A stretch of DNA of 64,000 nt from Escherichia coli (GTDB lineage: Bacteria; Pseudomonadota; Gammaproteobacteria; Enterobacterales; Enterobacteriaceae). Location: assembly GCF_050920415.1 (NCBI RefSeq), contig NZ_CP169309.1; one strand, given 5' to 3'. The position numbers were made by a program, and so were the translations under genes. Numbering within the stretch: the first letter of the stretch is position 1; each line of letters opens with the position of its first letter. Shown one piece after another: positions 513 to 56,145 of this stretch. The notes below the pieces were generated by a model. The model was not told where the DNA came from. It worked only from the letters and a program-made list of their open reading frames with translations, and did not search any database.

Positions 513-521
513 TTGATGCGC

Positions 522-543
522 GCCGGATGGCATACCATCCGGC
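522..543. terminator. Perfect GC-rich hairpin (gccggatgg-cata-ccatccggc) between convergent mutM and coaD; likely bidirectional terminator
   Basis: 9-bp inverted repeat with 4-nt loop read directly in sequence, located between two convergent stops. Confidence 0.55.
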
Positions 544-550
544 ATAAACG

Positions 551-2315
<1,765 letters not shown>

Positions 2316-2661
2316 AGTAAATAGCTGACTTATGGATGTGCTGGGGATTCTATGTATTTAGCGGTGGCTTTACCATTACTTTTCCCGTTTTTGACTTAAA
2401 TAGCTTCAGTTTGGTCTGATCTGCCGCTACATCTTCATTTTTTTTGTATTTTTATGCGATTCATTGAAACTCAGCCCCATTTTCAACTCTACATAAGCCA
2501 TACCGACCTTATCGGTATGATATTTTTTATCTATTTGAATTTTATAATTAAAAAATATTTTGTGTATAAAAATCATTCGGGTCGGATTGCTGCGAAAGAA
2601 ATGATACACTAGCACGTCAAAGTAAGTGCGTTATCAGTATTCAGGTAGCTGTTGAGCCTGG

Positions 2662-2673
2662 GGCGGTAGCGTG
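2662..2673 (+). promoter_or_regulatory. ops element (GGCGGTAGCGTG) within a JUMPstart-like leader of the waaQ operon; RfaH recruitment site
   Basis: Exact match to ops consensus GGCGGTAGnnTG, about 85 bp upstream of waaQ start, in the waaA-waaQ divergent intergenic region. Confidence 0.8.
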
Positions 2674-2756
2674 CTTTTTTTCTGCTTAACTAACCAGACA
2701 ATCACACAAAAGAGTCGCTAGTGGAAAAGCCATTTCGAAAAATCCTGGTCATAAAG

Positions 2757-3791: not shown

Positions 3792-4912
3792 TCGTGGCGT
3801 TTTGTTTATATAAATATTTTCCATTTGGTGGGCTTCAACGTGACTTTATGCGTATTGCATCAACAGTTGCCGCTCGGGGCCACCATGTTCGGGTCTATAC
3901 GCAGTCGTGGGAAGGTGATTGCCCAAAAGCATTTGAGCTTATTCAGGTGCCAGTTAAGTCCCATACCAACCATGGACGCAATGCAGAGTATTATGCCTGG
4001 GTACAAAATCATCTCAAAGAGCATCCCGCAGATCGCGTTGTTGGGTTTAATAAGATGCCAGGTCTGGATGTTTATTTTGCTGCTGATGTTTGTTACGCCG
4101 AGAAAGTTGCGCAAGAAAAAGGTTTTTTATATCGTTTAACATCACGATATCGCCATTATGCCGCATTTGAGCGGGCGACTTTCGAGCAGGGTAAATCGAC
4201 GAAACTTATGATGCTGACCGATAAGCAAATCGCCGATTTCCAGAAGCATTATCAAACCGAACCTGAACGTTTTCAAATTCTTCCTCCCGGTATTTATCCG
4301 GACAGAAAATACAGCGAGCAAATCCCAAACAGTCGTGAAATTTATCGCCAGAAAAATGGCATAAAAGAGCAACAAAACTTATTACTGCAGGTTGGATCAG
4401 ATTTTGGCCGTAAAGGTGTGGATCGCTCAATTGAAGCTTTGGCATCGTTATCGGAATCATTACGTCACAATACGCTTTTATTTGTTGTTGGCCAGGATAA
4501 GCCGCGAAAATTTGAAGCGCTGGCAGAAAAGCTCGGCGTGCGGAGCAATGTGCATTTCTTCTCCGGTCGCAATGATGTGTCAGAATTAATGGCAGCCGCT
4601 GATTTATTACTGCATCCCGCTTATCAGGAAGCCGCGGGTATCGTTCTTCTTGAAGCAATCACTGCTGGATTACCTGTTTTAACAACTGCGGTATGTGGGT
4701 ACGCGCATTATATTGCGGATGCCAATTGTGGAACGGTTATCGCTGAACCATTCTCCCAGGAACAGTTAAATGAAGTTTTACGTAAAGCGTTAACTCAGTC
4801 TCCATTACGAATGGCCTGGGCGGAGAATGCTCGCCATTATGCCGATACTCAGGATTTGTATAGCCTGCCAGAGAAAGCCGCAGATATCATTACAGGTGGT
4901 TTAGATGGTTGA
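3788..4912 (+). CDS. waaG: LPS core glucosyltransferase I, 374 aa
   Basis: 374-aa ORF overlapping waaQ stop (ATGA); GT4-like C-terminal region ...[26 protein letters not shown]... Confidence 0.9.
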
Positions 4913-5702
4913 ATTAAAAGAGCCGCTTGCCACACTTTGGCGTGGTAAAGATGCTTTTGAAGAAGTCAAAAAACTGAATGGCGAGGTCTTTCGTGAACTC
5001 GAGACGCGTCGCACATTACGCTTTGAACTGGCCGGGAAAAGCTATTTTCTTAAATGGCACAAAGGGACGACATTAAAAGAGATTGTAAAAAATCTACTCT
5101 CATTACGGATGCCCGTTTTGGGCGCAGACAGAGAGTGGCACGCTATTCATCGCCTGAGTGATGTTGGCGTTGATACAATGAAGGGCATTGGGTTTGGTGA
5201 AAAAGGGTTAAATCCATTAACTCGCACATCATTTATTATTACCGAAGATCTCACTCCCACGATTAGCCTTGAAGATTATTGTGCTGATTGGGCAGTCAAC
5301 CCGCCTGATATACGTGTAAAGCGTATGCTGATTACACGAGTGGCAACCATGGTGCGTAAAATGCACGCCGCAGGGATAAATCACCGCGACTGCTACATTT
5401 GCCACTTTTTGCTTCATTTACCATTTACTGGCCGGGAAGATGAATTAAAAATTTCGGTTATCGATCTGCATCGGGCACAGATACGTGCAAAAGTACCGCG
5501 CCGTTGGCGCGATAAAGACCTGATTGGTTTATATTTCTCATCAATGAATATTGGCCTGACGCAAAGAGACATATGGCGATTTATGAAGGTTTATTTTGGG
5601 ATGCCTTTGCGAAAAATATTGTCTCTTGAACAGAACTTATTGAACATGACAAGCGTTAAGGCCGAGCGTATTAAAGAGCGAACACAACGTAAAGGATTAT
5701 AA
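4905..5702 (+). CDS. waaP: LPS core heptose(I) kinase, 265 aa
   Basis: 265-aa ORF overlapping waaG by 8 bp; kinase-like motifs ...[17 protein letters not shown]... Confidence 0.9.
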
Positions 5703-5738
5703 AAATATTTATCAGTATGTACTGGAACTAACTTCATT

Positions 5739-6674
5739 ATGACTATTTATTTTATAAACTGGGTTGCAGATTATGAATTAAAAATGATCCAGTACCTGAA
5801 AAAAAAGTACAAGATAAAAAACATAACGACACCAAAAAAATACAACTGGATTAATAAGAAAATCTCAAAAATAGGGATGGATAATGCATGGCTGGGGCGA
5901 TTATTCATCAAACATTACCTAAATGATATTAAAAAAGATGACATAATTATCTTTAATGACAGTGTTATTAATAAAGGTATCAATAAACAAATATTAAAAA
6001 ACATTAACTGTCATAAAGTTTTGCTTCTAAGAAATACTGTTAGCGAAGATTTTATTTTTGATAACGCCAATTATTTCGATGTTATATATGATTTTGAACA
6101 TAGATTTATAGGGAATGAAAAGACCAAAGCAATAGAACAATTTTTTCCTATAGGGATGGAGGAGATTACGAATTATAACTTATCTGACAAAAATAACAGT
6201 CAGCCAATATGTTTCTTTCTTGGTCGAGATAAAGGGCGTCTTCAAATAATTAATGAGTTAGCCGATAGACTAGCAACACTAGGATGTAAGTTAGATTTTA
6301 ATGTTGTCAAAGATAAGACATCATCACCGACTTCAAAGTATTTGATTGAAAAACAAATGCCTTATGAAGAGAATATTAGAAGAACATTAAATGCTAATAT
6401 AATTGTTGATATAACTAAAGAAAACCAATCTGGTTGGACTCTTCGTATACTTGAGGCGCTATTTTTCAATAAGAAATTAATCACCAATAATATAAATATA
6501 CTTACTTCAGAAATCTATAGTGAGTCTCGCTTTTTTATAATAGGTCATGATGATTGGGATAAGTTAGAGTATTTTATTAACTCATCTGTTAAACCAATGG
6601 ATTATGATAGTTTATATAAATTCAGTCCAGATAAAATGATGTCAACGATTGTTTCTGATTTTATAGATAAATAA
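5739..6674 (+). CDS. waaS: LPS core biosynthesis protein WaaS (K-12 core-type specific), 311 aa
   Basis: AT-rich 311-aa ORF at the waaS position of the K-12-type core cluster. Confidence 0.75.
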
Positions 6675-6717
6675 AACCGTTAAAACAGTGAGTTTTACTC
6701 AATTAATGAGATCTTCT

Positions 6718-7797
6718 ATGAAAATAGCGTTTATCGGCGAAGCCGTTTCTGGATTTGGCGGCATGGAAACAGTCATCCGTGATGTCATTAGCAACTTCAG
6801 GCAACAACATATCCAAAGTGAAATGTTTTTCTTTTGTCGTAATGACAAAATGGATAAGGGATGGCTAGAGGGTATACAGTACTCGTGTTCATTTTCCAAT
6901 ATTCGTTTAGGCTTTTTACGTCGGGCGAAACATATTTATGCTTTAAGCAAATGGCTGCGGGATTATCAACCGGATATCGTTATTTGTATTGATGTGATCT
7001 CCTGCCTGTTTGCCGCAAAAGCACGTAAAAAATCAGGAATTGATGTGCCAGTATTTTCATGGCCACATTTTTCTTTAGATCACAAAAAACATGCTGAATA
7101 TATCACCTGTGCCGACTATCATTTAGCAATCAGCTCTGGCATTAAACAGCAAATGATTAATCGGGGTGTAGCAGAATCGACGATAAATGTTATTTTTAAT
7201 CCCGTCGAAGCCAAAGATTCAGTCATTCCCGCGCCCGAGGAAGCCGAAACGGCAACGTTCATTTATGTTGGGCGTATGAAATTTGAAGGCCAGAAGAGAG
7301 TTAAAGACCTGCTTGATGGCTTATCACAAGCGCAAGGTAACTGGAAACTCCATGTATTGGGTGATGGTTCCGATTTTGAAAAATGCCAGGCTTATAGTAG
7401 AGAACTAAATATTGATGATCGAATTGTCTGGTATGGTTGGCAACAACATCCCTGGGAATTGGTCCAGCAAGATATTAAAAAAGTGAGTGCATTATTGCTC
7501 ACGTCATCTTTTGAAGGTTTCCCAATGACCCTACTTGAAGCCTTGTCATGGGGGATTCCTTGTATCAGTGCCGATTGTGTCTCCGGGCCTGCTGACATTA
7601 TTCAACCTGATGTCAATGGTCATCTGTATCAACCGGGAGATATTGCTGGTTTTGTAACTCTTCTAAATAAATATATAGCAGGTGAAATTCATATCGAACA
7701 TGAAAAAATTCCTGCGTCGATCGATAAGTTTTACCAATCGAAGTATTACGATAGATTACATAAGATAATTATTTCTGCTATTTCCCGGAGGAAATAA
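6718..7797 (+). CDS. waaB: LPS core UDP-galactose:(glucosyl)LPS alpha-1,6-galactosyltransferase, 359 aa from internal Met
   Basis: Translation MKIAFIGEAVSGFGGMETVIRD...; GT4 family E-x7-E region ...SSFEGFPMTLLEALSWGIPCIS... Confidence 0.85.
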   Translation: MKIAFIGEAVSGFGGMETVIRDVISNFRQQHIQSEMFFFCRNDKMDKGWLEGIQYSCSFSNIRLGFLRRAKHIYALSKWLRDYQPDIVICIDVISCLFAAKARKKSGIDVPVFSWPHFSLDHKKHAEYITCADYHLAISSGIKQQMINRGVAESTINVIFNPVEAKDSVIPAPEEAETATFIYVGRMKFEGQKRVKDLLDGLSQAQGNWKLHVLGDGSDFEKCQAYSRELNIDDRIVWYGWQQHPWELVQQDIKKVSALLLTSSFEGFPMTLLEALSWGIPCISADCVSGPADIIQPDVNGHLYQPGDIAGFVTLLNKYIAGEIHIEHEKIPASIDKFYQSKYYDRLHKIIISAISRRK

Positions 7798-8816
7798 TGC
7801 AGCAGGTGTTTTTCCAGGAAACTGAGTTTCTTAATTCAGTTATTGATTATAATCATAAAGTAGAAACAGAAAATCTTTGTCTGGACATCGCTTATGGAAC
7901 TGACAAAAATTTTCTATTTGGTTGCGGAATTTCGATTGCTTCAATATTAAAGTATAATGAAGGAAGTCGATTGTGTTTCCATATTTTTACTGATTATTTT
8001 GGTGATGATGATCGTAAGTATTTTGATGCCCTGGCGTTGCAGTATGAAACCAGAATTAAAATATATCTGATTAATGGTGATCGACTGCGCTCATTGCCTA
8101 GCACAAAGAATTGGACTCATGCAATATATTTTCGTTTTGTTATTGCAGATTACTTTATTAATAAGGCGTCTAAAGTCCTTTATCTGGATGCAGATATCAT
8201 TTGTCAGGGGAATATTGAGCCACTAATTAATTTCTCATTTCCTGGCGATAAAGTCGCAATGGTTGTTACAGAAGGGCAAGCTGACTGGTGGGAAAAACGC
8301 GCCCATTCGTTAGGTGTTGTGGGAATTGCTAAAGGTTACTTTAACTCGGGTTTTTTATTGATTAATACTGCCCAATGGGCGGCTCAGCAGGTTTCTGCCC
8401 GAGCCATTGCAATGCTAAATGAGCCAGAAATAATCAAAAAGATAACACATCCTGATCAGGATGTATTAAATATGTTGCTGGCAGATAAACTTATTTTTGC
8501 TGATATTAAATATAACACCCAGTTTAGCTTAAATTATCAACTTAAAGAAAGCTTTATAAACCCAGTAACCAACGATACTATTTTTATCCATTATATCGGA
8601 CCAACCAAGCCCTGGCATGATTGGGCCTGGGATTATCCTGTATCACAAGCCTTTATGGAGGCAAAAAATGCTTCGCCATGGAAGAATACGGCGTTGCTGA
8701 AACCGAACAATAGCAATCAATTAAGATATAGCGCAAAACATATGCTTAAAAAGCATAGATATCTAAAAGGATTTAGCAACTATCTTTTTTATTTTATTGA
8801 AAAGATAAAGCATTAA
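7797..8816 (+). CDS. waaO: LPS core alpha-1,3-glucosyltransferase (GT8 family), 339 aa
   Basis: 339-aa ORF; GT8-type motifs ...LYLDADIICQG..., ...HYIGPTKPW... Confidence 0.85.
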   Translation: MQQVFFQETEFLNSVIDYNHKVETENLCLDIAYGTDKNFLFGCGISIASILKYNEGSRLCFHIFTDYFGDDDRKYFDALALQYETRIKIYLINGDRLRSLPSTKNWTHAIYFRFVIADYFINKASKVLYLDADIICQGNIEPLINFSFPGDKVAMVVTEGQADWWEKRAHSLGVVGIAKGYFNSGFLLINTAQWAAQQVSARAIAMLNEPEIIKKITHPDQDVLNMLLADKLIFADIKYNTQFSLNYQLKESFINPVTNDTIFIHYIGPTKPWHDWAWDYPVSQAFMEAKNASPWKNTALLKPNNSNQLRYSAKHMLKKHRYLKGFSNYLFYFIEKIKH

Positions 8817-8855
8817 AACTGGGAAACTATAAAGTAATGATATAAGGGTAGCATT

Positions 8856-9872
8856 GTGGACTCATTTCCTGCCATAGAGATAGATAAAGTTAAAGCCTGG
8901 GATTTTCGGCTTGCTAATATAAATACTTCTGAATGTTTAAATGTTGCCTATGGTGTCGATGCTAATTATCTTGATGGTGTAGGTATTTCCATCACATCAA
9001 TTGTCCTAAATAATCGACATATTAATCTTGATTTTTATATTATTGCTGATGTTTATAATGATGGTTTTTTTCAAAAAGTTGCAAAGCTTGCAGAGCAATA
9101 CCAATTAAGAATCACGTTATATAGAATTAACACTGATAAGCTCCAGTGCTTGCCTTGTACACAGGTCTGGTCAAGAGCAATGTACTTCCGTTTATTTGCA
9201 TTTCAATTATTGGGTTTAACGCTTGATCGTTTGCTTTATCTTGATGCAGATGTTGTTTGTAAAGGCGATATTAGCCAACTATTGCATCTGGATTTAAACG
9301 GAGCGGTTGCTGCTGTTGTTAAAGATGTTGAGCCAATGCAGGAAAAGGCGGTATCCAGGTTGTCTGATCCTGAATTACTTGGGCAGTACTTTAATTCTGG
9401 TGTCGTTTATTTAGATTTAAAAAAATGGGCTGACGCAAAACTAACAGAAAAAGCGTTGTCTATTCTTATGAGTAAAGATAATGTTTATAAATACCCTGAT
9501 CAGGATGTTATGAATGTCTTACTGAAAGGGATGACAATATTTTTGCCTCGTGAGTACAATACAATTTATACAATTAAAAGTGAATTAAAAGATAAAACAC
9601 ATCAAAACTATAAAAAGCTGATTACAGAAAGTACTCTTCTTATTCATTATACAGGTGCAACTAAACCGTGGCACAAATGGGCAATTTATCCATCGGTAAA
9701 ATACTATAAAATAGCTTTAGAAAATTCGCCATGGAAAGATGACTCGCCACGAGATGCAAAATCAATTATTGAATTTAAAAAAAGATATAAACATCTTTTA
9801 GTGCAGCGTCACTATATCTCAGGAATTATAGCAGGAGTCTGTTATCTTTGCCGAAAATATTACCGTAAATAA
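8856..9872 (+). CDS. waaJ: LPS core alpha-1,2-glucosyltransferase (GT8 family), 338 aa
   Basis: 338-aa paralog of the preceding GT8 ORF (...LYLDADVVCKG..., ...HYTGATKPW...). Confidence 0.85.
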   Translation: MDSFPAIEIDKVKAWDFRLANINTSECLNVAYGVDANYLDGVGISITSIVLNNRHINLDFYIIADVYNDGFFQKVAKLAEQYQLRITLYRINTDKLQCLPCTQVWSRAMYFRLFAFQLLGLTLDRLLYLDADVVCKGDISQLLHLDLNGAVAAVVKDVEPMQEKAVSRLSDPELLGQYFNSGVVYLDLKKWADAKLTEKALSILMSKDNVYKYPDQDVMNVLLKGMTIFLPREYNTIYTIKSELKDKTHQNYKKLITESTLLIHYTGATKPWHKWAIYPSVKYYKIALENSPWKDDSPRDAKSIIEFKKRYKHLLVQRHYISGIIAGVCYLCRKYYRK

Positions 9873-9889
9873 CATTTAACTGGTTTATT

Positions 9890-10588
9890 ATGATTCAGAA
9901 GAGCAAGATCAAAGACTTGGTTGTTTTTACCGATGAAAACAATTCAAAGTATCTCAATGTATTAAATGACTTTCTTTCTTATGATATTAATATCATCAAA
10001 GTTTTTCGTTCTATAGATGATACAAAAGTCATGCTTATTGATACCGATTACGGTAAATTGATACTTAAAGTTTTTTCTCCTAAAGTTAAACGCAACGAAC
10101 GTTTCTTTAAATCTCTTTTAAAGGGAGATTATTATGAACGCCTTTTTGAGCAAACTCAAAAAGTGCGTAACGAGGGGCTACATTCTCTCAATGACTTCTA
10201 TTTGTTAGCAGAACGGAAAACATTACGTTTTGTCCATACTTACATCATGCTTATCGAATATATCGATGGCGTTGAGTTGTGTGATATCCCCGATATTGAT
10301 GAAACGTTAAAAAATAAAATTCAACAATCAATCCGTTCATTGCACGAACATGGTATGGTATCTGGTGATCCTCACCGTGGTAATTTTATTATTGAAAATG
10401 GTGAAGTACGCATTATTGATCTTTCAGGAAAACGGGCATCTTCACAACGTAAAGCGAAAGATCGTATTGATCTAGAACGACATTATGGTATTAAGAATGA
10501 GATTAAAGATCTCGGTTATTATCTTTTAGTTTATCGTAAAAAAATACGTAATCTTATGCGCCGCTTGAAAGGAAAGCCAGCACGATAA
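9890..10588 (+). CDS. waaY: LPS core heptose(II) kinase, 232 aa
   Basis: 232-aa ORF with kinase-like ...HEHGMVSGDPHRGNFII...; position after waaJ. Confidence 0.85.
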   Translation: MIQKSKIKDLVVFTDENNSKYLNVLNDFLSYDINIIKVFRSIDDTKVMLIDTDYGKLILKVFSPKVKRNERFFKSLLKGDYYERLFEQTQKVRNEGLHSLNDFYLLAERKTLRFVHTYIMLIEYIDGVELCDIPDIDETLKNKIQQSIRSLHEHGMVSGDPHRGNFIIENGEVRIIDLSGKRASSQRKAKDRIDLERHYGIKNEIKDLGYYLLVYRKKIRNLMRRLKGKPAR

Positions 10589-10659
10589 AGTAAAAGTCTT
10601 ACATTTAAACGTCTTCGTCAGAACATTTCTATGCGGAGTTATTATTTCACAGGTTTATC

Positions 10660-11511
10660 ATGAAGAATATTAGATACATTGACAAAAAAGATGTTGAAAA
10701 CCTGATAGAAAGTAAAACGTCTGATGATGTTATTATTTTTCTTTCCGGCCCCACATCGCAAAAAACACCATTGTCAGTTCTGCAGACAAGGGATGTTATT
10801 GCTGTCAATGGTTCCGCGCAATATCTACTAAGTCATAATATTATTCCCTATATTTATGTACTTACTGATGTTCGCTTCTTGCATCAGCGTCGTGATGATT
10901 TTTATAAATTTAGCCAGAGAAGTCGTTATACCATAGTAAACGTCGACGTTTATGAACACGCTTCCAAAGAAGATAAACTTTATATCCTCCAAAACTGCCT
11001 CGTATTACGGTCCTTTTACCGCCGAGAAAAAGGCGGTTTGATAAAGAAGATAAAATTTAATATATTAAGTCAGATTCATAAAGAACTGCTGATCTCTGTA
11101 CCGTTGTCTAAAAAAGGTCGTCTGGTCGGATTTAGCAAGGACATCAGTCTTGGTTATTGCTCATGCCATACTATTGCCTTTGCTGCAATTCAAATAGCAT
11201 ATACACTTAAGTATGCGCGGATTATTTGTTCTGGTCTTGATTTAACTGGTAGTTGTTCTCGTTTCTATGACGAAAGTAACAATCCTATGCCCTCGGAATT
11301 GAGTAGGGATTTGTATAAAATCTTGCCATTTTTCCGTTTTATGCGTGATAATGTAGAAGATATTAATATTTATAATTTGTCAGATGATACGGCTATTTCT
11401 TACGATGTAATTCCATTTATTAAACCTCTCGATATCAGTACAGAAGAGTCAAAGGATAAGATAAGAAAAAAAATGGAATATAAAGCTTCAACTGATTCTT
11501 ATGCTAATTAA
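10660..11511 (+). CDS. waaZ: LPS core biosynthesis protein WaaZ (K-12 core type), 283 aa
   Basis: 283-aa AT-rich ORF at waaZ position. Confidence 0.75.
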   Translation: MKNIRYIDKKDVENLIESKTSDDVIIFLSGPTSQKTPLSVLQTRDVIAVNGSAQYLLSHNIIPYIYVLTDVRFLHQRRDDFYKFSQRSRYTIVNVDVYEHASKEDKLYILQNCLVLRSFYRREKGGLIKKIKFNILSQIHKELLISVPLSKKGRLVGFSKDISLGYCSCHTIAFAAIQIAYTLKYARIICSGLDLTGSCSRFYDESNNPMPSELSRDLYKILPFFRFMRDNVEDINIYNLSDDTAISYDVIPFIKPLDISTEESKDKIRKKMEYKASTDSYAN

Positions 11512-11543
11512 TCATCCTGAAACTAAAATTATATGGTATAAAA

Positions 11544-12617
11544 ATGCGTTTAGGAACTTTTCACAAAAAGAAAAGATTTTATATAAACAAAATCAAGATT
11601 AATTTTCTTTCTTTTTTATTTCGTAAAAAAATCAATAACCAAGTTACAGATCTCGCACAAGTTAAATCATGCCTTATCATTCATGATAATAATAAACTCG
11701 GTGATTTAATTGTATTAAGTTCGATTTATCGTGAGCTTTATAGTAAAGGAGTTAAAATAACCATTCTCACAAATAGAAAGGGAGGGGAGTTTCTCTCTAA
11801 CAATAAAAATATATTTGGATTCTGTATTAAAGAATCAACAGGTTTCCTTAAAATGCTTACTCTATGTAAGCATTTGCGGGATTTACAGTTCGATATTGTA
11901 TTAGACCCCTTTGAAACTATGCCCTCATTTAAGCATAGCTTAATATTATCAAGTTTAAAAGATTCTTACATTCTGGGTTTTGATCAATGGTATAAGCGTT
12001 ACTATTCATTTTACCATCCCCATGATGAATGTTTAAAAGAACATATGAGTACACGAGCAATAGAAATACTGAAGCATATTTATGGTGAGGGTGAATTTTC
12101 CACCGACTACGACTTGCATTTGCCTGTAGATGTTGAAAATAAAATAATAGATTTTATTGGGAATACAAGGATAGTCATCATTAACCCATTAGGTGCAAAA
12201 AAAATATGCCGACTTACGTTTGAGCAAATAAAAGTTATATATCAAGAAGTGAAAGTACAATTTGAGAATTATCGAGTGATATTTACTGGGTTGCCGCAAG
12301 ATTTATTGACAATACCAATACCTGAAATCGAAACACTACCATTTGATGAGTTTATTTATACCGTTGCGTTGACCAGGTATAGTGATTTTGTCATTTCTGT
12401 TGATACAGCTCTTGTTCATATCGCTGCGGCTTATCATAAACCAACGCTTGCATTTTATCCTAATTCACGCACTCCGGAATATCCCTCACATTTAATTTGG
12501 TCCCCAAATAATCATCGGTCTATACAAATAGTATCCCCAACATTTACGGTAAAAGATATCGATCCTGAAACTTTAACTGATTCAGTAAAGAGATTAAGTT
12601 GTATAGATAAGAAGTGA
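11544..12617 (+). CDS. waaU: LPS core heptosyltransferase-family protein WaaU (RfaK), 357 aa
   Basis: 357-aa ORF, last gene of the long waaQ operon, heptosyltransferase-like fold. Confidence 0.8.
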   Translation: MRLGTFHKKKRFYINKIKINFLSFLFRKKINNQVTDLAQVKSCLIIHDNNKLGDLIVLSSIYRELYSKGVKITILTNRKGGEFLSNNKNIFGFCIKESTGFLKMLTLCKHLRDLQFDIVLDPFETMPSFKHSLILSSLKDSYILGFDQWYKRYYSFYHPHDECLKEHMSTRAIEILKHIYGEGEFSTDYDLHLPVDVENKIIDFIGNTRIVIINPLGAKKICRLTFEQIKVIYQEVKVQFENYRVIFTGLPQDLLTIPIPEIETLPFDEFIYTVALTRYSDFVISVDTALVHIAAAYHKPTLAFYPNSRTPEYPSHLIWSPNNHRSIQIVSPTFTVKDIDPETLTDSVKRLSCIDKK

Positions 12618-12642
12618 GTTTTAACTCACTTCTTAAACTTGT

Positions 12643-13908
12643 CTATTCTTGATTAATAGTATTGTTGCGATTATTAATAACGAGTAAGAGGACTATAGCT
12701 GATATAACGATAATTGGAATGCTGCGTGCCCATATGATTACATCACTGAGTCCAATCCCCACTATGCCAAGCGTTAATATCAACAAACCCAATGCGCGTT
12801 TTTTATATGCTGTATAAAATAGTGAATAATAGAGGAAAAGGGTAGAAAAAATCCCCATCAGACCTTTTAGTGACGCTGCTTCAATTATCTCATTATGTAG
12901 GTGTACGTTAGAAAACTCCAATGCCCCTCTTAGCCTGTTGTGTTCTGCAACTAACAAATTCATACTTTCAGCGCGCGACTCTGCAGATCTAAATGAAAAA
13001 GGTGACTTTTTGAATATATCCAAACCAATTTCGTACATTGCCAGCCTTGCACCTAAGGAAGTCACGCTATTAGCATTGGTATAACTGTTTAAATCATTTA
13101 ATGCTTCATTATAGCGATTCTGTATTGGTTTATTAAATATAATTACAATACTCGCCAATATAGCAATTAGAAGAACAATAGCGGAAGTAAATTTCTTAGG
13201 TGATTTATTATAATAAGCTATTAATGTAACAGCACAAATTCCAGGAAACAGGAGTAGTGTTGCTCTGGTTTGTGTTAGTGCCAGAACATAAAGTACCGCG
13301 CAACTATTTAATAAAAATAAAAAAGGATGGTTCTTCTTAGTATAAAGAATCGCAACACCACTAACTATCCCTATTAGCATTGTTGAATATGCCGCTCCTG
13401 TTGCCGTTCCTACACCAAAAGAAATACGGTCATATTCATGAATGCTATTAATATACATTGCATATCCAGCAATTATAAATGACAGAGAATATAAAATGTA
13501 TAATACACTCTCTTTTTTATTTTTTAGCTGACTAGTTAGTGCTAAAAAAACAATAAAAGAACCAAATATAAATATTTTGGCAGTATTTAAATAACTATGG
13601 TAAGTAGCACGAAATGGCGAGTTATCTACTTTAAATATAGAATACCAAATTAAATCAAGCAAGCCTATAAAAAATATAGAAAGGGGCAGAATAATATTTT
13701 TTATATTGTAATTTCCTTGTCTGCCACGTAAAATTAGTGATAATAGGCAAACTATAGCAGTGATATTATATATCTTTATGCTGAAAGTGTTATCGACGAA
13801 TGCAATTATCAATGAAAGAAAACATAATATATAAGTTATTACCTCTAAAATCATAGATGATTTCAGAGTGTAAGGTTTCCATGAATGAAGTTTAATGAAG
13901 GTTGGCAT
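12643..13908 (-). CDS. waaL: O-antigen ligase, polytopic membrane protein, 421 aa
   Basis: Highly hydrophobic 421-aa ORF; position and orientation as waaL in the hldD-waaFCL operon. Confidence 0.85.
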   Translation of the reverse strand: MPTFIKLHSWKPYTLKSSMILEVITYILCFLSLIIAFVDNTFSIKIYNITAIVCLLSLILRGRQGNYNIKNIILPLSIFFIGLLDLIWYSIFKVDNSPFRATYHSYLNTAKIFIFGSFIVFLALTSQLKNKKESVLYILYSLSFIIAGYAMYINSIHEYDRISFGVGTATGAAYSTMLIGIVSGVAILYTKKNHPFLFLLNSCAVLYVLALTQTRATLLLFPGICAVTLIAYYNKSPKKFTSAIVLLIAILASIVIIFNKPIQNRYNEALNDLNSYTNANSVTSLGARLAMYEIGLDIFKKSPFSFRSAESRAESMNLLVAEHNRLRGALEFSNVHLHNEIIEAASLKGLMGIFSTLFLYYSLFYTAYKKRALGLLILTLGIVGIGLSDVIIWARSIPIIVISAIVLLLVINNRNNTINQE

Positions 13909-13917
13909 GTTTTACCT

Positions 13918-14877
13918 TTATAATGATGATAGTTTTTCCAAAACTGCTTGACCGTTGAGATTAATTAAACTTTTTCCCGGTGCCATGCAAACTACCTGAT
14001 TCTTCCCATACCCACCAATTAATCCCGGATCGGTAGGTCCATAAACCGTGATATTGGGTCTATCCAGTGCCGCCGTTAAATGGCTTAACCCCGTATCCAC
14101 CGACACCACAAATTTAGCGCCCGCCAGCACACGAGCAACGCCTTCCAGACTCATCTTCGGCAATACTTCAACATAAGCAAATCCTTCCGCCAGTCGTTTC
14201 GCCCGTTCTTCCTCATGCGGCGCGCCCCACGGAAGTTTAATCCGTATTCCTGAATCAGCCAGTAAACCAATCAATTCTCGCCAGTGTTCTTCCGGCCAGT
14301 GTTTATCATCACGGGTCGTCGCATGAAGAAATACGGCATATTCGCCAGCATCTGTAGGCAGGTTCGTCAGGAAATGCTGTGCGATAGCATAATCGCCCTG
14401 GGTTTGCGGTTTGCTATAGCCCAGACTTTTGGCAAACAGTTCGCGGGTGCGTTCTACGGCGTGCTGCTGTTTTGCAATATGATGCTTACGATTGTAAAAC
14501 AGGCTGGCTAAGGGTTCGCGAGCGGTTTGCCAGTCCATTCCATGCTTTACGCCATGCGCCAGACGCGTCACCAGCGCCGCGCTTTTTACCAGCCCCTGAG
14601 CGTCGATAACTGCGTCATAGTTCTCTGCTTGTAGCGCTTCACGAAACGCTTTGCGTTCAGCTTTTATGGGGGCCGAGAACCAGGCTTTACGCCAGCGACG
14701 TATTGCCACAGGAATAACTCGCTCAACGGCAGCGTGCCAGGAAGGAATCTGTGCGAACCCTTCTTCCACCACCCAGTCAAACTTAATCCCTGGGATTGCC
14801 TGCTGGGCATCAGTGAGTGCGGGCAGCGTATGGAGAACATCGCCCATCGACGATGTTTTAACGATCAGAACCCGCAT
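13918..14877 (-). CDS. waaC: LPS heptosyltransferase I, 319 aa
   Basis: MRVLIVKTSSMGDVLHTLPALTDA...; 319 aa. Confidence 0.9.
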   Translation of the reverse strand: MRVLIVKTSSMGDVLHTLPALTDAQQAIPGIKFDWVVEEGFAQIPSWHAAVERVIPVAIRRWRKAWFSAPIKAERKAFREALQAENYDAVIDAQGLVKSAALVTRLAHGVKHGMDWQTAREPLASLFYNRKHHIAKQQHAVERTRELFAKSLGYSKPQTQGDYAIAQHFLTNLPTDAGEYAVFLHATTRDDKHWPEEHWRELIGLLADSGIRIKLPWGAPHEEERAKRLAEGFAYVEVLPKMSLEGVARVLAGAKFVVSVDTGLSHLTAALDRPNITVYGPTDPGLIGGYGKNQVVCMAPGKSLINLNGQAVLEKLSSL

Positions 14878-14880
14878 CCG

Positions 14881-15927
14881 TCAGGTTTCCTCTTGTAACA
14901 ATAGCGCGTTGAGTTCTTCCAGTACGCGCTGGGGAGTAATGTCGATCAAGCTCTGGTGATAACCCTCCGCAGCGTCACCTTTACGCACTTTGTGATAGCC
15001 GGTAATCAGGCGGATCACGCGCGCTTTATGGGATAGTGGCGGTGTGAAGTCCGGGCTACTCGGACCATACAGGGCAACCAAAGGACGATTGAGCGCCGCC
15101 GCAACGTGCATCAGGCCAGAATCGTTAGTGACAATGGCTTTACAGGCTGCAATCAGGATAACTGCTTGATCAAGCTGTGTTTCCCCCGCCAGGTTCCGGC
15201 ACCATGCCTGCTGCTCGGTATTCAAAGCGGCAAGAATCTCATTGCCCGCTTCATGATCTTTCGCCGAGCCAAACAGAACCACCTGATAACCTTCATCAAT
15301 CAGCTGCTTTGCCAGCTCCGCATAGTGGTAGTGTGGCCAGCGTTTTGCCGGACCAAACTCCGCTCCGGGGCAAAAGCCAATCATCGGACGTTCTGATGAA
15401 AGCGAAAATTGATTACAGGTATATGATTTTTCACCTTCGCTCACCTGCAACTGCGGCCATAACAATGGCTGCGGCAGATCTTGTGCGGTACGCATAATGC
15501 CTTTGTCATAGGCCAGCGCGACATAGCGTTCCACCATTAGCGGCCAGGCTTCTTTATCGAGCACGCGTACATCGTTAAGTAAACCGTAGCGCATCTCGCC
15601 GCGCCAGCCGGTGCGATGAGGAATACCCGCGAAGAAAGGCACTAATGCGGACTTGAAGGAGTTGGGTAAGACGTAGGCGCGGTCGTAGCGCTTTTCACGC
15701 AGACTATGACCCAGTTTGCGGCGTTCGCCGATTTCCAGCGCTCCGTGACCGAGAGGCATAGGGATAGCTTCGTTAACTTCCGGCATCCGCGATAATAACG
15801 GACGGCACCATGCCGGTGCCATCACGTCGATTATCGCCTGGGGATAGCGCGCCTGGAGCGTGCGATAGAGACTTTGCGACATCATCATGTCGCCAACCCA
15901 AGACGGGCCGATCACCAGTATTTTCAT
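14881..15927 (-). CDS. waaF: LPS heptosyltransferase II, 348 aa
   Basis: MKILVIGPSWVGDMMMSQSLYRTL...; 348 aa. Confidence 0.9.
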   Translation of the reverse strand: MKILVIGPSWVGDMMMSQSLYRTLQARYPQAIIDVMAPAWCRPLLSRMPEVNEAIPMPLGHGALEIGERRKLGHSLREKRYDRAYVLPNSFKSALVPFFAGIPHRTGWRGEMRYGLLNDVRVLDKEAWPLMVERYVALAYDKGIMRTAQDLPQPLLWPQLQVSEGEKSYTCNQFSLSSERPMIGFCPGAEFGPAKRWPHYHYAELAKQLIDEGYQVVLFGSAKDHEAGNEILAALNTEQQAWCRNLAGETQLDQAVILIAACKAIVTNDSGLMHVAAALNRPLVALYGPSSPDFTPPLSHKARVIRLITGYHKVRKGDAAEGYHQSLIDITPQRVLEELNALLLQEET

Positions 15928-15936
15928 GCAGAGCTC

Positions 15937-16869
15937 TTATGCGTCGCGATTCAGCCAGGCCATGTATTCCGTTACACCTTCAGCAACGGTTTTGAACGGT
16001 TTGTCGTAACCCGCCGCGCGCAGATTCGTCAGATCTGCCTGAGTGAACGCCTGATAGCGGCCTTTCAGTTTATCCGGGAACGGAATGTATTCGATCTGGC
16101 CTTTCTTGTGATAAGCAAGCGTAGCATCTGCTACTGCCTGGAAGGATTCTGCACGACCGGTGCCGAGGTTGAAGATGCCGGAAACGCCATTTTCCAGGAA
16201 CCACAGATTCACATCAGCCACGTCGCCCACATAGACGAAGTCACGTTTGAAGTTCTCGCTACCTTCGAACAGCTTCGGTGATTCACCGTTGTTAAGCTGA
16301 GTGTTGAGATGGAAAGCGACGCTCGCCATGCTGCCTTTATGGCCTTCACGCGGTCCATAAACGTTGAAATAGCGGAAGCCAACAATCTGCGAGTTCGCTT
16401 CTGGCAGGATTTGGCGAACATATTCATCAAACAGGAATTTTGAGTAACCGTAGACGTTCAACGGTTTTTCGTACTCGCGGGATTCAATAAAGTCGGAGGT
16501 GCGACCGCCGTAAGTGGCCGCGGAAGAGGCATACAGGAACGGGATTTCGCGTTCCAGACAGTAGTGCAGCAGCTCTTTGGAGTATTGATAGTTGTTATCC
16601 ATCATATACTTGCCATCCCACTCGGTGGTGGAAGAGCACGCGCCTTCGTGGAAAATCGCTTCGACATCGCCGAACTCTTCGCCAGCCATAATCTGGATCA
16701 GGAAGTCTTCCTTATCCATATAGTCCGCGATATCCAGATCGACCAGGTTCACAAACTTGGTGCCGTCTTTCAGGTTGTCCACCACCAGAATATCGGTGAT
16801 GCCTTTATCATTCAGGGCCTTAACGATATTGCTGCCGATAAAGCCCGCGCCGCCGGTAACGATGATCAT
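15937..16869 (-). CDS. hldD: ADP-L-glycero-D-manno-heptose 6-epimerase, 310 aa
   Basis: [23 protein letters not shown]... (NAD-binding GxxGxxG); 310 aa. Confidence 0.9.
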
Positions 16870-17082
16870 AACTGTAACCTTCGAATTATGGAGTCAGAGA
16901 CAATCTCAGACACGAATGCTTCTATCATATCACTACACGGCGTTCGCTTCAGCCATTCGCCAAAAGTGAGATTGATGGACGTTATTTATCCTGAATTTTG
17001 CAGAAGTGTTAACGCGTCATCTCGTCGCAACCTATAAGTTTGGGTAATATGTGCTGGAATTTGCCCTGTCTGGAGAATCGCA

Positions 17083-18279
17083 ATGCGTGGAGAATTTTAT
17101 CAGCAGTTAACCAACGATCTGGAAACCGCAAGGGTGGAAGGGTTGTTTAAAGAAGAGCGCATTATTACGTCTGCGCAACAAGCAGACATCACGGTGGCTG
17201 ATGGAAGCCACGTCATTAACTTTTGTGCCAATAACTATCTCGGACTGGCGAATCATCCGGATCTGATTGCGGCGGCAAAGGCGGGAATGGATTCTCACGG
17301 TTTCGGCATGGCTTCGGTGCGTTTTATTTGCGGCACTCAGGACAGCCATAAAGAGCTTGAACAAAAACTGGCGGCCTTCCTGGGGATGGAAGATGCGATT
17401 CTCTACTCTTCCTGCTTTGATGCTAACGGTGGCCTGTTCGAAACGCTGTTGGGCGCGGAAGACGCCATTATCTCCGACGCACTGAACCACGCGTCTATTA
17501 TTGATGGTGTGCGTCTGTGCAAAGCTAAACGCTATCGTTATGCCAACAACGATATGCAGGAGCTGGAAGCACGTCTGAAAGAAGCGCGTGAAGCCGGTGC
17601 GCGTCATGTGCTGATTGCCACCGATGGTGTGTTCTCGATGGACGGCGTGATTGCCAACCTGAAAGGTGTTTGCGATCTGGCAGATAAATACGATGCCCTG
17701 GTGATGGTAGACGACTCCCACGCCGTTGGTTTTGTCGGTGAAAATGGTCGTGGTTCCCATGAATACTGCGATGTGATGGGCCGGGTCGATATTATCACCG
17801 GCACGCTCGGTAAAGCGCTGGGCGGGGCTTCTGGTGGTTATACCGCGGCGCGCAAAGAAGTGGTTGAGTGGCTGCGCCAGCGTTCTCGTCCGTACCTGTT
17901 CTCCAACTCGTTGGCACCGGCCATTGTTGCCGCTTCCATCAAAGTGCTGGAGATGGTTGAAGCGGGTAGCGAGTTGCGTGACCGTCTGTGGGCGAACGCG
18001 CGTCAGTTCCGTGAGCAAATGTCGGCGGCGGGCTTTACCCTGGCGGGTGCCGATCACGCCATTATTCCGGTCATGCTTGGCGATGCTGTAGTGGCGCAAA
18101 AATTTGCACGTGAACTGCAAAAAGAGGGCATTTACGTCACCGGTTTCTTCTATCCGGTCGTTCCGAAAGGTCAGGCGCGTATTCGTACCCAGATGTCTGC
18201 GGCGCATACCCCTGAGCAAATTACGCGTGCGGTAGAAGCGTTCACGCGTATTGGTAAACAACTGGGCGTAATCGCCTGA
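17083..18279 (+). CDS. kbl: 2-amino-3-ketobutyrate CoA ligase (glycine C-acetyltransferase), 398 aa
   Basis: 398-aa PLP-dependent aminotransferase class II; followed by tdh. Confidence 0.9.
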
Positions 18280-18292
18280 GTGAGGATGTGAG

Positions 18293-19318
18293 ATGAAAGC
18301 GTTATCCAAACTGAAAGCGGAAGAGGGCATCTGGATGACCGACGTTCCTGAACCGGAACTCGGACATAACGATCTGCTGATTAAAATCCGTAAAACAGCC
18401 ATCTGCGGGACTGACGTTCACATCTATAACTGGGATGAGTGGTCGCAAAAAACCATCCCAGTACCGATGGTTGTAGGCCATGAATATGTCGGTGAGGTGG
18501 TTGGCATCGGTCAGGAAGTGAAAGGCTTCAAGATCGGCGATCGCGTTTCTGGCGAAGGCCATATCACTTGTGGTCATTGCCGCAACTGTCGTGGCGGTCG
18601 TACACATCTGTGCCGCAACACGATCGGCGTCGGCGTTAACCGTCCGGGCTGCTTCGCCGAGTATCTGGTGATTCCGGCGTTCAACGCTTTCAAAATCCCC
18701 GACAATATCTCCGATGATCTGGCTTCCATTTTTGATCCCTTCGGTAACGCCGTGCATACCGCGCTGTCGTTTGATCTGGTGGGCGAGGATGTGCTGGTCT
18801 CTGGTGCAGGCCCGATAGGTATTATGGCTGCGGCGGTGGCGAAACACGTCGGTGCACGCAACGTGGTGATCACGGATGTTAATGAATACCGCCTTGAGCT
18901 GGCGCGTAAAATGGGTATCACCCGTGCGGTTAACGTCGCCAAAGAAAATCTCAATGACGTGATGGCGGAGTTAGGCATGACCGAAGGCTTTGATGTCGGT
19001 CTGGAAATGTCCGGTGCGCCGCCAGCGTTTCGTACCATGCTCGACACCATGAACCACGGCGGTCGCATTGCGATGCTGGGTATTCCGCCGTCTGATATGT
19101 CTATCGACTGGACCAAAGTGATCTTTAAAGGCTTGTTCATTAAAGGTATTTACGGTCGTGAGATGTTTGAAACCTGGTACAAGATGGCGGCGCTGATTCA
19201 GTCTGGCCTCGATCTCTCGCCGATCATTACCCATCGTTTCTCTATCGATGATTTCCAGAAGGGCTTTGACGCTATGCGTTCGGGCCAGTCCGGGAAAGTT
19301 ATTCTGAGCTGGGATTAA
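18293..19318 (+). CDS. tdh: L-threonine 3-dehydrogenase, 341 aa
   Basis: Zn-dependent ADH-like (...[12 protein letters not shown]..., ...[10 protein letters not shown]...); 341 aa. Confidence 0.9.
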
Positions 19319-19328
19319 CACGAACAAG

Positions 19329-19353
19329 GGCTGGTATTCCAGCCCTTTTTCCT
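19329..19353 (+). terminator. Rho-independent terminator after tdh (gggctgg-tattc-cagccc followed by T-run)
   Basis: GC stem plus ttttt tract read directly, 10 bp after tdh stop. Confidence 0.7.
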
Positions 19354-19555
19354 GAGGATAATCCGTTAAATATGTAAAATCCTGTCAGTGTAATAAAGAT
19401 ATCGTAATTGCGCTGATCTCTTATATAGCTGCTCTCATTATCTCTCTACCCTGAAGTGACTCTCTCACCTGTAAAAATAATATCTCACAGGCTTAATGGT
19501 TTCTTAATACAAAGCCTGTAAAACATCAGGATAACTTCAGAGGTCGTCGGTATTT

Positions 19556-20590
19556 ATGATGAACAGCACCAATAAACTCAGTGTTATTATCCCGTTATAT
19601 AATGCGGGAGATGATTTCCGTACTTGCATGGAATCTTTAATCGCGCAAACCTGGACTGCTCTGGAAATCATTATTATTAACGATGGTTCAACGGATAATT
19701 CTGTTGAAATAGCAAAGCATTACGCGGAAAACTATCCGCACGTTCGTTTGCTGCATCAGGCGAATGCCGGCGCATCGGTGGCGCGTAATCGTGGGATCGA
19801 GGCGGCGACGGGTAAATATGTCGCTTTTGTCGATGCTGACGATGAGGTCTATCCCACTATGTACGAAACGCTGATGACCATGGCGTTAGAGGACGACCTC
19901 GACGTGGCGCAGTGCAACGCTGACTGGTGTTTTCGTGAAACGGGAGAAACCTGGCAATCCATCCCCAGCGATCGCCTTCGCTCAACCGGCGTATTAACCG
20001 GCCCTGATTGGTTGCGGATGGGGCTTTCTTCCCGCCGTTGGACTCATGTTGTCTGGATGGGCATTTATCGTCGTGATGTCATTGTTAAAAATAACATTAA
20101 ATTTATTGCCGGATTACATCATCAGGATATTGTCTGGACAACAGAATTTATGTTTAACGCGCAACGCGTGCGATATACCGAGCAATCGTTATATAAATAT
20201 TATTTGCATAATACGGCAGTGAGCCGATTGAATAGACAGGGAAATAAAAACCTTAATTATCAACGCCACTATATTAAGATTACCCGACTGTTGGAAAAGT
20301 TAAATCGCGATTACGCAGACAGAATAGTGATTTACCCGGAATTTCATCAACAAATAACTTACGAAGCATTACGTGTTTGCCATGCGGTACGTAAAGAGCC
20401 AGATATTATTACCCGCCAACGGATGATTGCTGAGATATTTACTTCCGGTATGTATAAGCGCCTGATTTCCAATGTACGCAGCATAAAGGTGGGTTATCAG
20501 GCGTTACTGTGGTCTTTCCGCTTATGGCAATGGCGCGACAAAACACGGTCGCACCATCGCATTACGCGTAGCGCCTTTAATTTGCGCTAG
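19556..20590 (+). CDS. waaH: GT2-family glycosyltransferase WaaH (YibD), 344 aa
   Basis: ...[14 protein letters not shown]...[11 protein letters not shown]...VDADDE... (GT2 DxD), 344 aa. Confidence 0.85.
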
Positions 20591-21536
20591 CGTTAAGTTT
20601 TGCCGCTTCGGGCTGCTTGCCCCAGCCTTGCCACTGATGCTGGAAGTAAACGATCAGCGTGCTCTGGCTGATGCTTTCGCTTAATACTTCAAAGAAGCGA
20701 TTAGCATAAACCGGTTCCAGCGGTTTCTTCGGTTTACACAGTTTCACGCCACGGAACGGATTATGCGGTGCATCAGGCACAGCGTTTATCGGCGGTGTAG
20801 AAGTATCAACCTGCGGTTCATTCAGCAAGCTGCTGGCTTTCACCAGTGTAATGTCTGGCGGCAGGTTATAAACCATCTGTTGCAACACGCGTACCGTTGA
20901 AGGGTGAGGATGCCCAATGGCAATGGTTGAACCGTTGCGACGCGCCAGGTCAATTGCACGATTAAACTGCACACGGATGTCTGCTTCGTTCTGTGAATCG
21001 TCGAGGAACACCTTCCGTTTAATAACCTTCACGCCAGTGCCTTGCGCGGCGCGCATCGCCTGGGTATTACCGATGGTTACGCTGTCGAGGAAGTAAAGAT
21101 TGTAACGCTCCAGTGCCTGCATCACTTTCTGCATACCAAACAGGTTAGAGGTCATCTTGCTGCCCATGTGGTTGTTGATCCCCACGGCATAGGGCACGTT
21201 ATTGACCGCACTACGAATAATGCGCTCAATTTCGTCGCTGCTCATCTCCGGGCGCAGCGTATTTTTCTCCAGCGGCTGTTTACTCAACGGTGCCATCGGC
21301 AGATGAATCAACACTTCGTGACCGCTGTTATGCGCTTTGGTCGCCATCTCTCTGGCGTGCGGTGAATCGGGTAATACAGCGACGGAGATAGCGGAAGGCA
21401 TCGCCAGCACCTGGTTTTCGTTGTGTGGGCGATACCCAAAATCATCAATGACGATGGCAAGTTTGCCAGCAAGTACAGGGGAGGAGAGCGCCAACAGAGC
21501 GGCAAATGCAAGAACGTTACGACGAAATGGAAACAA
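20577..21536 (-). CDS. yibQ: Divergent polysaccharide deacetylase family protein, 319 aa
   Basis: 319-aa ORF with signal peptide, upstream of and co-oriented with envC. Confidence 0.8.
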
Positions 21537-21539
21537 AAC

Positions 21540-22799
21540 TTATCTTCCCAACCACGGCTGTGGATTGACCGCCTGACCCTGGCGGCGAATTTCGAAATAA
21601 AGTGAAGGCCGACCCTGACCGCCACTGCTGCCCACCAGTGCAATTGGCTGGCCCGCGCGAACCTGCGAACCAACGCTCACCAGTGCGCTCTGATTATAGC
21701 CGTAAAGACTCATGTCGCCTTTACCATGCTCAACCACCACCACCAGACCGTAGCCTTGCAGCCAGTCAGCCAGAATCACCCGACCGTCGGCAATCGCTTT
21801 AACTTCAGTACCTTCAGAAGCACCAATCACCATCCCTTTCCAGCGCAGCTCACCCTGTAGCTGCTCGCCATAACGATGCAGCGTCGGCCCGCGAACCGGC
21901 CAGAATGCCTGACCACGCGGCGCTCCCAGGCCACCAGTTCGGGACATCAGCGATTTTTCGCTTTCGGTCGGTTTGTAGGTGGTGCCTTTGCGCGTCGCTT
22001 CTTTCTGACGGTCGCGAACCGCCTGGGCTTCGCGCGCCTCACGTTCAGCACGCGCTTTCGCCGCCGCTTCCGCACGGGCAATGCTGTTACGTAGACGAGA
22101 TTCGTTGGCGCGCAGCTCGCTCAACTGTTGTTGACCTTGCTGGATGGAAGACTCTAGCCCAGCCAGCGTCTTTTTACGATCGTTCAGCGCCTGGGTCAGC
22201 TTCGCCTGTTGGGCTCGCTGCTCATATAACAGTGTTTGTTGCTCGCTCTGTTTCTCTTCCAGCTCGGCGCGTTGCATAGCGACTTCTTCACGCGTTTGTT
22301 TCAACTGAGCAATGGTTTCTTGTCGCGCCTGGTTGAGATAGCCGAAATAAGCCTGTAAACGCTGTCCACGCTGGCTTTCTTCACCGCTGAGAATCAGCTG
22401 AATACCGGTATGCTCGCCCTGACGGAATGCGGCATCCAGTTGTGCGGCGAGGCTGCGCTCCTGGGCGGCTTTTTGCTGCTCCAGTTTGGCAATCGACGCG
22501 TTCATCTCATCAATCTGTTTATTCAGTTGATTGAGCGTGTTTTGCGTTTCGCGCAGCTTACGGGTGGCTTCCGAGATCGCTTCTTCCTGCTTTTTCAACT
22601 GAGCAAGCAGGCTGGAGCGTTGTTGTTGTTTTTGGCGTACCGCGCGCTCTTTCGCGGCGATATCGGCCTGAATGGATTTGAGTTGGTCGCGATCATCCGC
22701 GTGGGCGGAAAAGGCGCACAACAATACGCCAGCGCTAAGAACGCTGGCGTAGATGATGGGCCTGATTGCAAACCTGCGCGGTTTCACGGCCCGTGTCAT
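21540..22799 (-). CDS. envC: Murein hydrolase activator EnvC (coiled-coil plus LytM domain), 419 aa from internal Met
   Basis: MTRAVKPRRFAIRPIIYASVLSAG... then long coiled coil and C-terminal LytM-like region. Confidence 0.9.
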   Translation of the reverse strand: MTRAVKPRRFAIRPIIYASVLSAGVLLCAFSAHADDRDQLKSIQADIAAKERAVRQKQQQRSSLLAQLKKQEEAISEATRKLRETQNTLNQLNKQIDEMNASIAKLEQQKAAQERSLAAQLDAAFRQGEHTGIQLILSGEESQRGQRLQAYFGYLNQARQETIAQLKQTREEVAMQRAELEEKQSEQQTLLYEQRAQQAKLTQALNDRKKTLAGLESSIQQGQQQLSELRANESRLRNSIARAEAAAKARAEREAREAQAVRDRQKEATRKGTTYKPTESEKSLMSRTGGLGAPRGQAFWPVRGPTLHRYGEQLQGELRWKGMVIGASEGTEVKAIADGRVILADWLQGYGLVVVVEHGKGDMSLYGYNQSALVSVGSQVRAGQPIALVGSSGGQGRPSLYFEIRRQGQAVNPQPWLGR

Positions 22800-45195: not shown

Positions 45196-45296
45196 TGTCA
45201 GCGCCAATGATATAAGACAGTAATTCACCATTTGGATTGTCCGCTCCACCCAACATGTTGTTTCCTTAAGGTTCCTACACCACAAAGGGAACACTC

Positions 45297-46343: not shown

Positions 46344-46455
46344 CATCGCACCGTCTCTGTTCGGCTGTATACGGCTGGCAGACCGTGCCGGAGCATCACG
46401 CCCCACTCTGGCAGCAGGTCAGTCAGGTGGAACACAGGCCGTTGAGTGCCTATGA

Positions 46456-47262
<807 letters not shown>

Positions 47263-47323
47263 TGACCAATAGCGGACATTAAAAATGGCGAAAAACGGCC
47301 AATAATCTTGGCGTTGACACGAC

Positions 47324-55990: not shown

Positions 55991-56145
55991 GATGACCTCC
56001 CTGGTATTGCTACAGGAAAAAGTAATTAACCGATATTGACCGTACCTTCTGATATTCTCTCACTGATTCATTATCTGTATTTCCCATGAACATTCTCATT
56101 TCAACAGGAAAACCAACGAATTGTAGCCATGACAATAAGTTAACA

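Follow-up and report, generated by a model that had tools for sequence, protein, structure and literature searches.

In Escherichia coli K-12 (strain DH1), the yibB/htrL gene sits between rfaD and kbl, at a gene-to-gene distance of 1435 bp. The K-12 spacer has been described as H-NS-bound DNA with divergent htrL and hldD promoters, of which the htrL promoter has the form TATACA-18-TATAAT, together with a distal promoter directed toward hldD (PMC3946193). The htrL gene itself is 858 bp long and encodes a protein of 285 aa that matches the Pfam family HtrL_YibB (PF09612, E 8e-131); in a comparison with PDB sequences, the K-12 protein gave no match below E 0.24. A comparative study lists yibB/htrL as a variably present gene (PMC8303582). 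For the LPS core genes, the K-12 core type is defined by waaU and waaL (PMC8715443, PMC13293308), and it is the core type of the ST131 clonal complex (PMC8715443, PMC13293308). No phage, IS or Tn remnants were found around the waa loci (PMC8715443). The core-type papers PMC8715443 and PMC13293308 make no mention of htrL or of the kbl or hldD flanks.

The hldD-kbl locus and its core cluster

The window, by which we mean the whole 64-kb stretch of E. coli DNA analyzed here, has a near-identical counterpart in the RefSeq genome of E. coli MFDS1022581 (NZ_CP169399.1), with 6 mismatches over the first 35.5 kb. The genes relevant to the locus are as follows.

2721-13908: K-12-type LPS core cluster, waaQGPSBOJYZU on the plus strand with waaL on the minus strand, from a full-length collinear alignment to K-12 DH1, in agreement with the PGAP names of the near-identical genome
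15937-16869, minus strand: hldD (rfaD/gmhD), ADP-glyceromanno-heptose 6-epimerase, from the open reading frame and the RefSeq annotation of the near-identical genome
17083-18279, plus strand: kbl, glycine C-acetyltransferase, from the same two sources
18293-19318: tdh, 3' of kbl

The product of hldD, the first gene of the operon hldD-waaF-waaC, matches the Pfam family Epimerase (E 4e-45), and its DNA is 96.9% identical to K-12 rfaD; the corresponding values for kbl are Aminotran_1_2 (E 2e-78) and 96.7%. An earlier sequence-only reading had placed the two genes as divergent neighbors 213 bp apart (16870-17082), and these coordinates are exact according to both the list of open reading frames and the annotation of NZ_CP169399.1, in which rfaD and kbl are found at the same positions with no gene in between. 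Its further remark that the spacer contains no open reading frame of 60 aa or more is true, as none lies wholly inside, but trivial: 213 bp has room for 70 codons at most, so the absence of an open reading frame carries no statistical weight.

The central claim of that reading was that the htrL gene found in K-12 between kbl and hldD is missing here. The alignment to K-12 and the search for htrL remnants that it had proposed confirmed htrL at this position in K-12 DH1 and left no remnant of it in the window. When K-12 HtrL was compared with the entire 64-kb window by tblastn, the best match (E 0.67) was at an unrelated site and there was none in 16870-17082, and blastn of the K-12-specific segment with 7-nt words gave zero matches in the same interval. 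No open reading frame of the PF09612 family was found between hldD and kbl in the window. As a consequence, this strain would do without HtrL, a protein linked to LPS loci.

From waaA to yibQ, the window is collinear with K-12 DH1 in two alignments (1-16932 and 16979-21872) at 95.6-95.8% identity. The genes waaQ-G-P-S-B-O-J(R)-Y-Z-U and the divergent waaL-waaC-waaF-hldD are all present in this order and at full length, with identities that range from 86.4% (waaY) to 98.1% (waaO and waaJ) and include 91.3% for waaZ, 94.3% for waaU and 93.4% for waaL. Both the K-12-specific waaU (GT9 heptosyltransferase) and a K-12-type waaL ligase are thus among them, and the collinear alignment and the PGAP names uphold the earlier assignment to the K-12 core type. 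The description of the region as a K-12-like core with a different flank was only partly right: htrL is indeed absent, but the flank kbl-tdh-waaH-yibQ is otherwise collinear with K-12, and the htrL indel is the sole structural difference across 22 kb.

The core of the window is itself a rare, divergent variant of the K-12 type in the region from 9890 to 13908 (waaY, waaZ, waaU and waaL). Among 5426 complete E. coli genomes, 18 have a waaL at least 95% identical to that of the window (1 at ≥99% and 17 at 95-99%), and the window allele is about equally far from K-12 (93.4%) and ST131 (93.2%).

Several other features were noted elsewhere in the window. At ~44617-47881, following the annotation of the near-identical genome, yibH (HlyD family) is split by an IS21-like ISEc62 element with intact istA and frameshifted istB, followed by an ISAs1 transposase fragment. 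Upstream of yibF, at ~53789-60324, are two vgrG/tssI genes with hypothetical genes after each of them, putative cargo of the T6SS effector/immunity kind, and near this region, at ~49112-50169, are an N-acetylmuramidase family gene and a gene for an EF-hand protein. A large gene for a YadA-like trimeric autotransporter (1658 aa) adjoins lldP and is followed by a DUF3251 gene (~32560-37536).

Anatomy of the 213-bp spacer

Near-identity to K-12 stops at 16918 on the hldD side and begins again exactly at 16979 on the kbl side. Between the two start codons, the following parts were distinguished.

16870-16918, minus strand: hldD leader, directly upstream of hldD, mismatch-free relative to K-12 (blastn) and kept in Citrobacter and 'Enterobacter sp. 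Ag1'
16919-16955, minus strand: putative hldD promoter core, homologous to a K-12 segment but strongly diverged
16956-16978, no strand: junction segment of ~23 bp, with no demonstrable K-12 counterpart and with the indel point at its right end (16978|16979)
16979-17082, plus strand: kbl-adjacent conserved block, part of a 222-bp alignment with 97% identity to K-12 that starts exactly at 16979

The part next to hldD is probably the hldD 5' UTR. On the hldD strand, the adjoining 37 bp contain TGaTATGAT (reverse complement of 16924-16932), which has the shape of an extended -10 element, and CTGAAG (reverse complement of 16947-16952), a weak -35 element, with 17 nt between CTGAAG and TATGAT. Judged by eye, this is a probable hldD promoter that would start transcription near 16917 and give a leader of ~48 nt. 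A consensus promoter/terminator scan of 16780-17180 called no site at its own, stricter thresholds, and an Rfam search of 16600-17400 found no RNA family at E up to 1.

The 60 bp at 16919-16978 were at first taken for filler without relation to K-12. This reading was rejected in part, since a multi-species alignment and a shuffle test make the first ~37 bp a diverged homolog of the hldD promoter. In a global alignment of 16919-16955 with the corresponding K-12 segment (L001:1719-1780), the score was reached by only 1 of 2000 shuffles, and the motifs ATCATA..CTTCAGCC are kept in all 7 alleles aligned. Conservation of the hldD-proximal block extends through the motif CTTCAGCC(A/C)TT in every long allele aligned (K-12, a cryptic-clade Escherichia genome, four species of Citrobacter, and 'Enterobacter sp. 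Ag1'). These promoter-proximal 37 bp are ~50% diverged between the window and K-12, while the leader is near-identical. Past CTTCAGCC, the similarity of the junction segment to K-12 is no better than that of shuffled sequences (486 of 2000 reach the score); the segment is present, ungapped, in EC958 (100%) and EC-16-35 (60%). On the other side, the kbl-proximal 104 bp are kept from CGTnATTTA onward in htrL-bearing alleles of Escherichia, Citrobacter and Ag1, and this block may constitute the kbl-tdh promoter and leader region.

The window, EC958 and EC-16-35 all have a short allele of exactly 213 bp, and these align without gaps, at 98.1% (EC958) and 83.6% (EC-16-35) identity to the window; EC958 has the same junction as the window, and EC-16-35 a diverged homolog of it. 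From these comparisons, the spacer is best read as two conserved control blocks of divergent operons, joined nearly end to end. At the same joint, K-12 carries ~1.22-1.25 kb of AT-rich DNA (36% GC) that corresponds to the htrL promoter, gene and terminator, the last in the form of a terminator-like hairpin. By comparison, hldD and kbl have 51-54% GC, and the waa region as a whole has 36.5%. In the window, all promoter elements that drive hldD and kbl would lie within the 213 bp, and the AT-rich, H-NS-bound DNA described for the K-12 spacer would be missing.

Frequency and age of the two alleles

We searched the 5426 complete E. coli genomes with a 1.1-kb probe across the junction (16400-17500), and counted hldD and kbl as adjacent when at least 80% of the probe was covered in one place. 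The probe matched 5424 of the genomes. In 3465 of the 5426 (~64%), hldD and kbl are directly adjacent in a single continuous alignment, and in the others the match is split into two places. The K-12-specific segment of 1281 bp that contains htrL is present in 1959 genomes (~36%) and is chromosomal in every case, so that the short (3465) and long (1959) alleles add up to all 5424 matching genomes. The htrL-less arrangement is thus the majority state in E. coli, and K-12 has the minority state. Short-allele strains include EC958/ST131, APEC O1, CE10, ATCC 8739 and E. coli C; long-allele strains include K-12, 55989, O157:H7 and O111:H8. The adjacency of hldD and kbl is already visible in thousands of annotated genomes, and is ordinary and nothing new in kind.

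The short allele is also frequent together with a K-12-type core. A waaL probe identified K-12-type waaL in 1032 of the 5426 genomes, K-12 strains and ST131 among them. The two characters were cross-tabulated with a chimeric probe that consisted of waaL and the 61-bp short junction. Because these parts are too far apart in the genome to be merged into one place, the number of places minus the number of records equals the number of genomes that contain both. There were 3369 places in 2794 records, a difference of 575, or 574 after subtraction of strain TR01, in which the junction occurs twice. At least 574 of the 1032 K-12-type-waaL genomes (≥56%) therefore lack htrL, an indirect count that is a lower bound because ~1100 short-allele genomes are too diverged at the junction for the 61-bp probe. 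(On its own, this probe matched ~2336 places, and a related 62-bp segment ~2363 genomes.) Among the matches listed in the same search, K-12 laboratory strains gave one place, and ST131 strains and the genome of the window gave two. The region from waaY to kbl was matched best by alignments in one piece, which came from many unrelated isolates of animal, human and environmental origin. The combination of a K-12-type core with the short allele is therefore one frequent combination, and the implication of the earlier reading that the flank is noteworthy is not supported by these counts (3465 of 5426 genomes overall, and at least 574 of 1032 with a K-12-type core). The presence of htrL is not tied to the type of outer core, and K-12-type cores with and without htrL occur in roughly equal numbers. 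Since K-12 represents the minority state at this locus, absence by comparison with K-12 should be taken neither as a deletion nor as a sign of an unusual strain.

Outside E. coli, representatives of four Citrobacter species, among them Citrobacter sp. R56, C. amalonaticus and C. freundii, carry htrL in the K-12 orientation with hldD and kbl on either side, as do 'Enterobacter sp. Ag1' and the cryptic-clade genome Escherichia sp. MOD1-EC7003. In a fifth Citrobacter contig, which is cut, htrL-kbl is visible. The HtrL proteins are 79-82% identical to K-12 in Citrobacter and Ag1 and 96% in MOD1-EC7003. This shared synteny argues that the htrL slot is old. In Salmonella LT2, rfaD presumably adjoins kbl. 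An HtrL homolog with 51% identity was also observed in a Providencia sp. MAG (L015, 4001-4846), directly downstream of hldD-waaF-waaC, after waaC, which suggests that the link between htrL and the heptose operon is older than the K-12 position of the gene. A 2.6-kb contig from a MAG labeled 'Bacillota bacterium' (L007, JAEWTL010000099.1) encodes HldD and HtrL of the E. coli type (99% identity), and is almost certainly E. coli contamination binned into this MAG.

The long allele has little depth within E. coli, with ≥99% identity to K-12 in 1711 of the 1959 genomes that carry it. Between K-12 and EDL933, the intergenic region with htrL is 99.58% identical (6 of 1435 bp differ), compared to 98.2% for rfaD and 98.6% for kbl (~17 differences per kb). 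The flanks of short alleles show 3-7% divergence between lineages. We also observed that the genes flanking the waa region are unusually diverse in E. coli, with identities between the lineages compared of 92.7-96.8% for the 5' part of kbl (17083-18000) and 95.2-97.1% for hldD (15937-16869). K-12 DH1 and O157:H7 EDL933, the two strains compared that have the long allele, do not differ in their HldD and Kbl proteins. This pattern suggests deep haplotypes that hitch-hike with the LPS core region.

Origin of the short allele and comparison with known systems

We consider it very probable that the window carries the common short allele of an old presence/absence polymorphism that has been reshuffled by homologous recombination in the flanking genes. 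The short allele would be a compact, 213-bp divergent control region, to which the long allele adds ~1.22-1.25 kb with htrL at the joint. Exchange of the alleles would proceed by homologous recombination in the conserved flanks, independently of the outer-core gene set beyond hldD-waaFC. This agrees with the exchange of waa diversity by homologous recombination without mobile-element scars described previously (PMC8715443). That a single, gap-free 213-bp structure is shared across diverged lineages argues for a single old origin, rather than repeated recent deletions. Since the htrL slot is old, being syntenic in Citrobacter, a single ancient deletion of htrL is the most likely source of the short form, a tentative polarity given that the short alleles compared all come from E. 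coli. Within this species, the short allele would be the deeper and more diverse class, and the htrL form a shallower haplotype that has spread more recently.

The opposite polarity, in which the short allele is ancestral at all depths and the htrL segment is a horizontal acquisition at precisely this point in E. coli, and in Citrobacter either an independent one or one received by transfer, is a possibility to be taken seriously, although we tend to doubt it. An acquired segment might be expected to look as this one does, with 36% GC next to 51-54% in hldD and kbl, but the equally low GC content (36.5%) of the waa region as a whole means that this property is not specific to a recent arrival. 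The very low diversity of the segment within E. coli also fits such an acquisition, as does the short allele in EC958, APEC O1 and CE10, strains of phylogroups B2 and F. The species representatives of E. coli, E. albertii and E. fergusonii are absent from the matches in a GTDB scan for HtrL, an absence that is only suggestive, as the scan used exact K-12 peptide words. Against this stands the occupation of the same slot, in the same orientation and with the same block boundaries, in several Citrobacter and a more distant genus at ~80% HtrL identity, which fits long residence better than repeated insertion. Moreover, no trace of a mobile element, such as part of a transposase or integrase gene, inverted repeats at the ends or a duplicated target site, was found at the indel boundaries in K-12 or in the window.

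The K-12-type set of core genes and the collinearity of the remaining flank with K-12 could instead indicate that this strain descends from a K-12-like ancestor and lost htrL recently, in its own lineage only, but such an event is highly improbable. The identical 213-bp structure and junction occur in thousands of genomes, including ST131 at 98%; the promoter-proximal block is ~50% diverged from K-12, whereas a fresh deletion would have kept K-12-like sequence; and the waa genes, at 86-98% identity, place the lineage at a distance from K-12. Given that the same 213-bp structure is found in deeply diverged lineages, there was no recent deletion in this strain's own lineage. Even less credit can be given to an assembly artifact, or to a relocation of htrL elsewhere in the genome: an independent complete genome shows the same sequence, HtrL-like coding potential is nil across the 64-kb window, and the short and htrL-carrying genomes sum exactly to all those matched, as expected if no short-allele genome holds the segment elsewhere.

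One genome appeared at first sight to capture an intermediate. In O157:H7 TR01 (NZ_CP033605.1; L004, 2994-3055 and ~4238-4276), the htrL segment lies between two copies of a 39-bp direct repeat, CGTTGGCTTCAGCCATTCGCCAAAAGTGAGATTGATGGA, which is the same as the short-allele segment at 16941-16979 of the window. TR01 is the only genome with such a repeat-flanked htrL among the 5426, and its 6-kb locus is 97.3% identical to EDL933. As a lone case with a locus oddly diverged from EDL933, it was set aside as evidence for the mechanism of either insertion or deletion; it may be a real recombinant or an assembly or polishing artifact from mixed reads.

Returning to the old polymorphism, it is conceivable, but in our judgment improbable, that selection maintains two ancient spacer haplotypes across Escherichia and Citrobacter, one with HtrL and an AT-rich, H-NS-bound spacer and the other with a divergent promoter compressed into 213 bp, the hldD promoter cores of the two being ~50% diverged and the leaders identical. 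If so, the locus would constitute a regulatory and structural LPS variable that is ignored by current core typing, and the selection might involve, for example, HtrL-dependent LPS modification versus phage or host pressure, or different heat or H-NS control of hldD-waaFC. The function of HtrL not being established, strains without htrL, such as this one, provide an htrL-null background that exists in nature. As they also have a diverged hldD promoter core, they would make it possible to study whether heptose supply or LPS structure depends on HtrL or on the AT-rich spacer.

Compared to K-12 (MG1655/DH1), the window has the same two divergently oriented genes on its flanks, a near-identical hldD leader, the kbl-proximal 104 bp in a 97%-identical alignment and the same core type. 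It differs in having 213 bp in place of the 1435 bp of K-12, which include the extra 1.22-1.25 kb with htrL, its promoter and a terminator-like hairpin. The hldD-htrL-kbl loci of Citrobacter spp. share the same hldD-proximal and kbl-proximal conserved blocks, but have htrL between them, where the window has none. Like the window, ST131 (EC958) combines a K-12-type waaL with a 213-bp, htrL-less spacer, which is 98.1% identical to that in the window and has an identical junction. The waaL allele (93.2%) and the 5' part of kbl (94.2%) are distinct between the two, and the window represents a third, rarer variant of the K-12 type.
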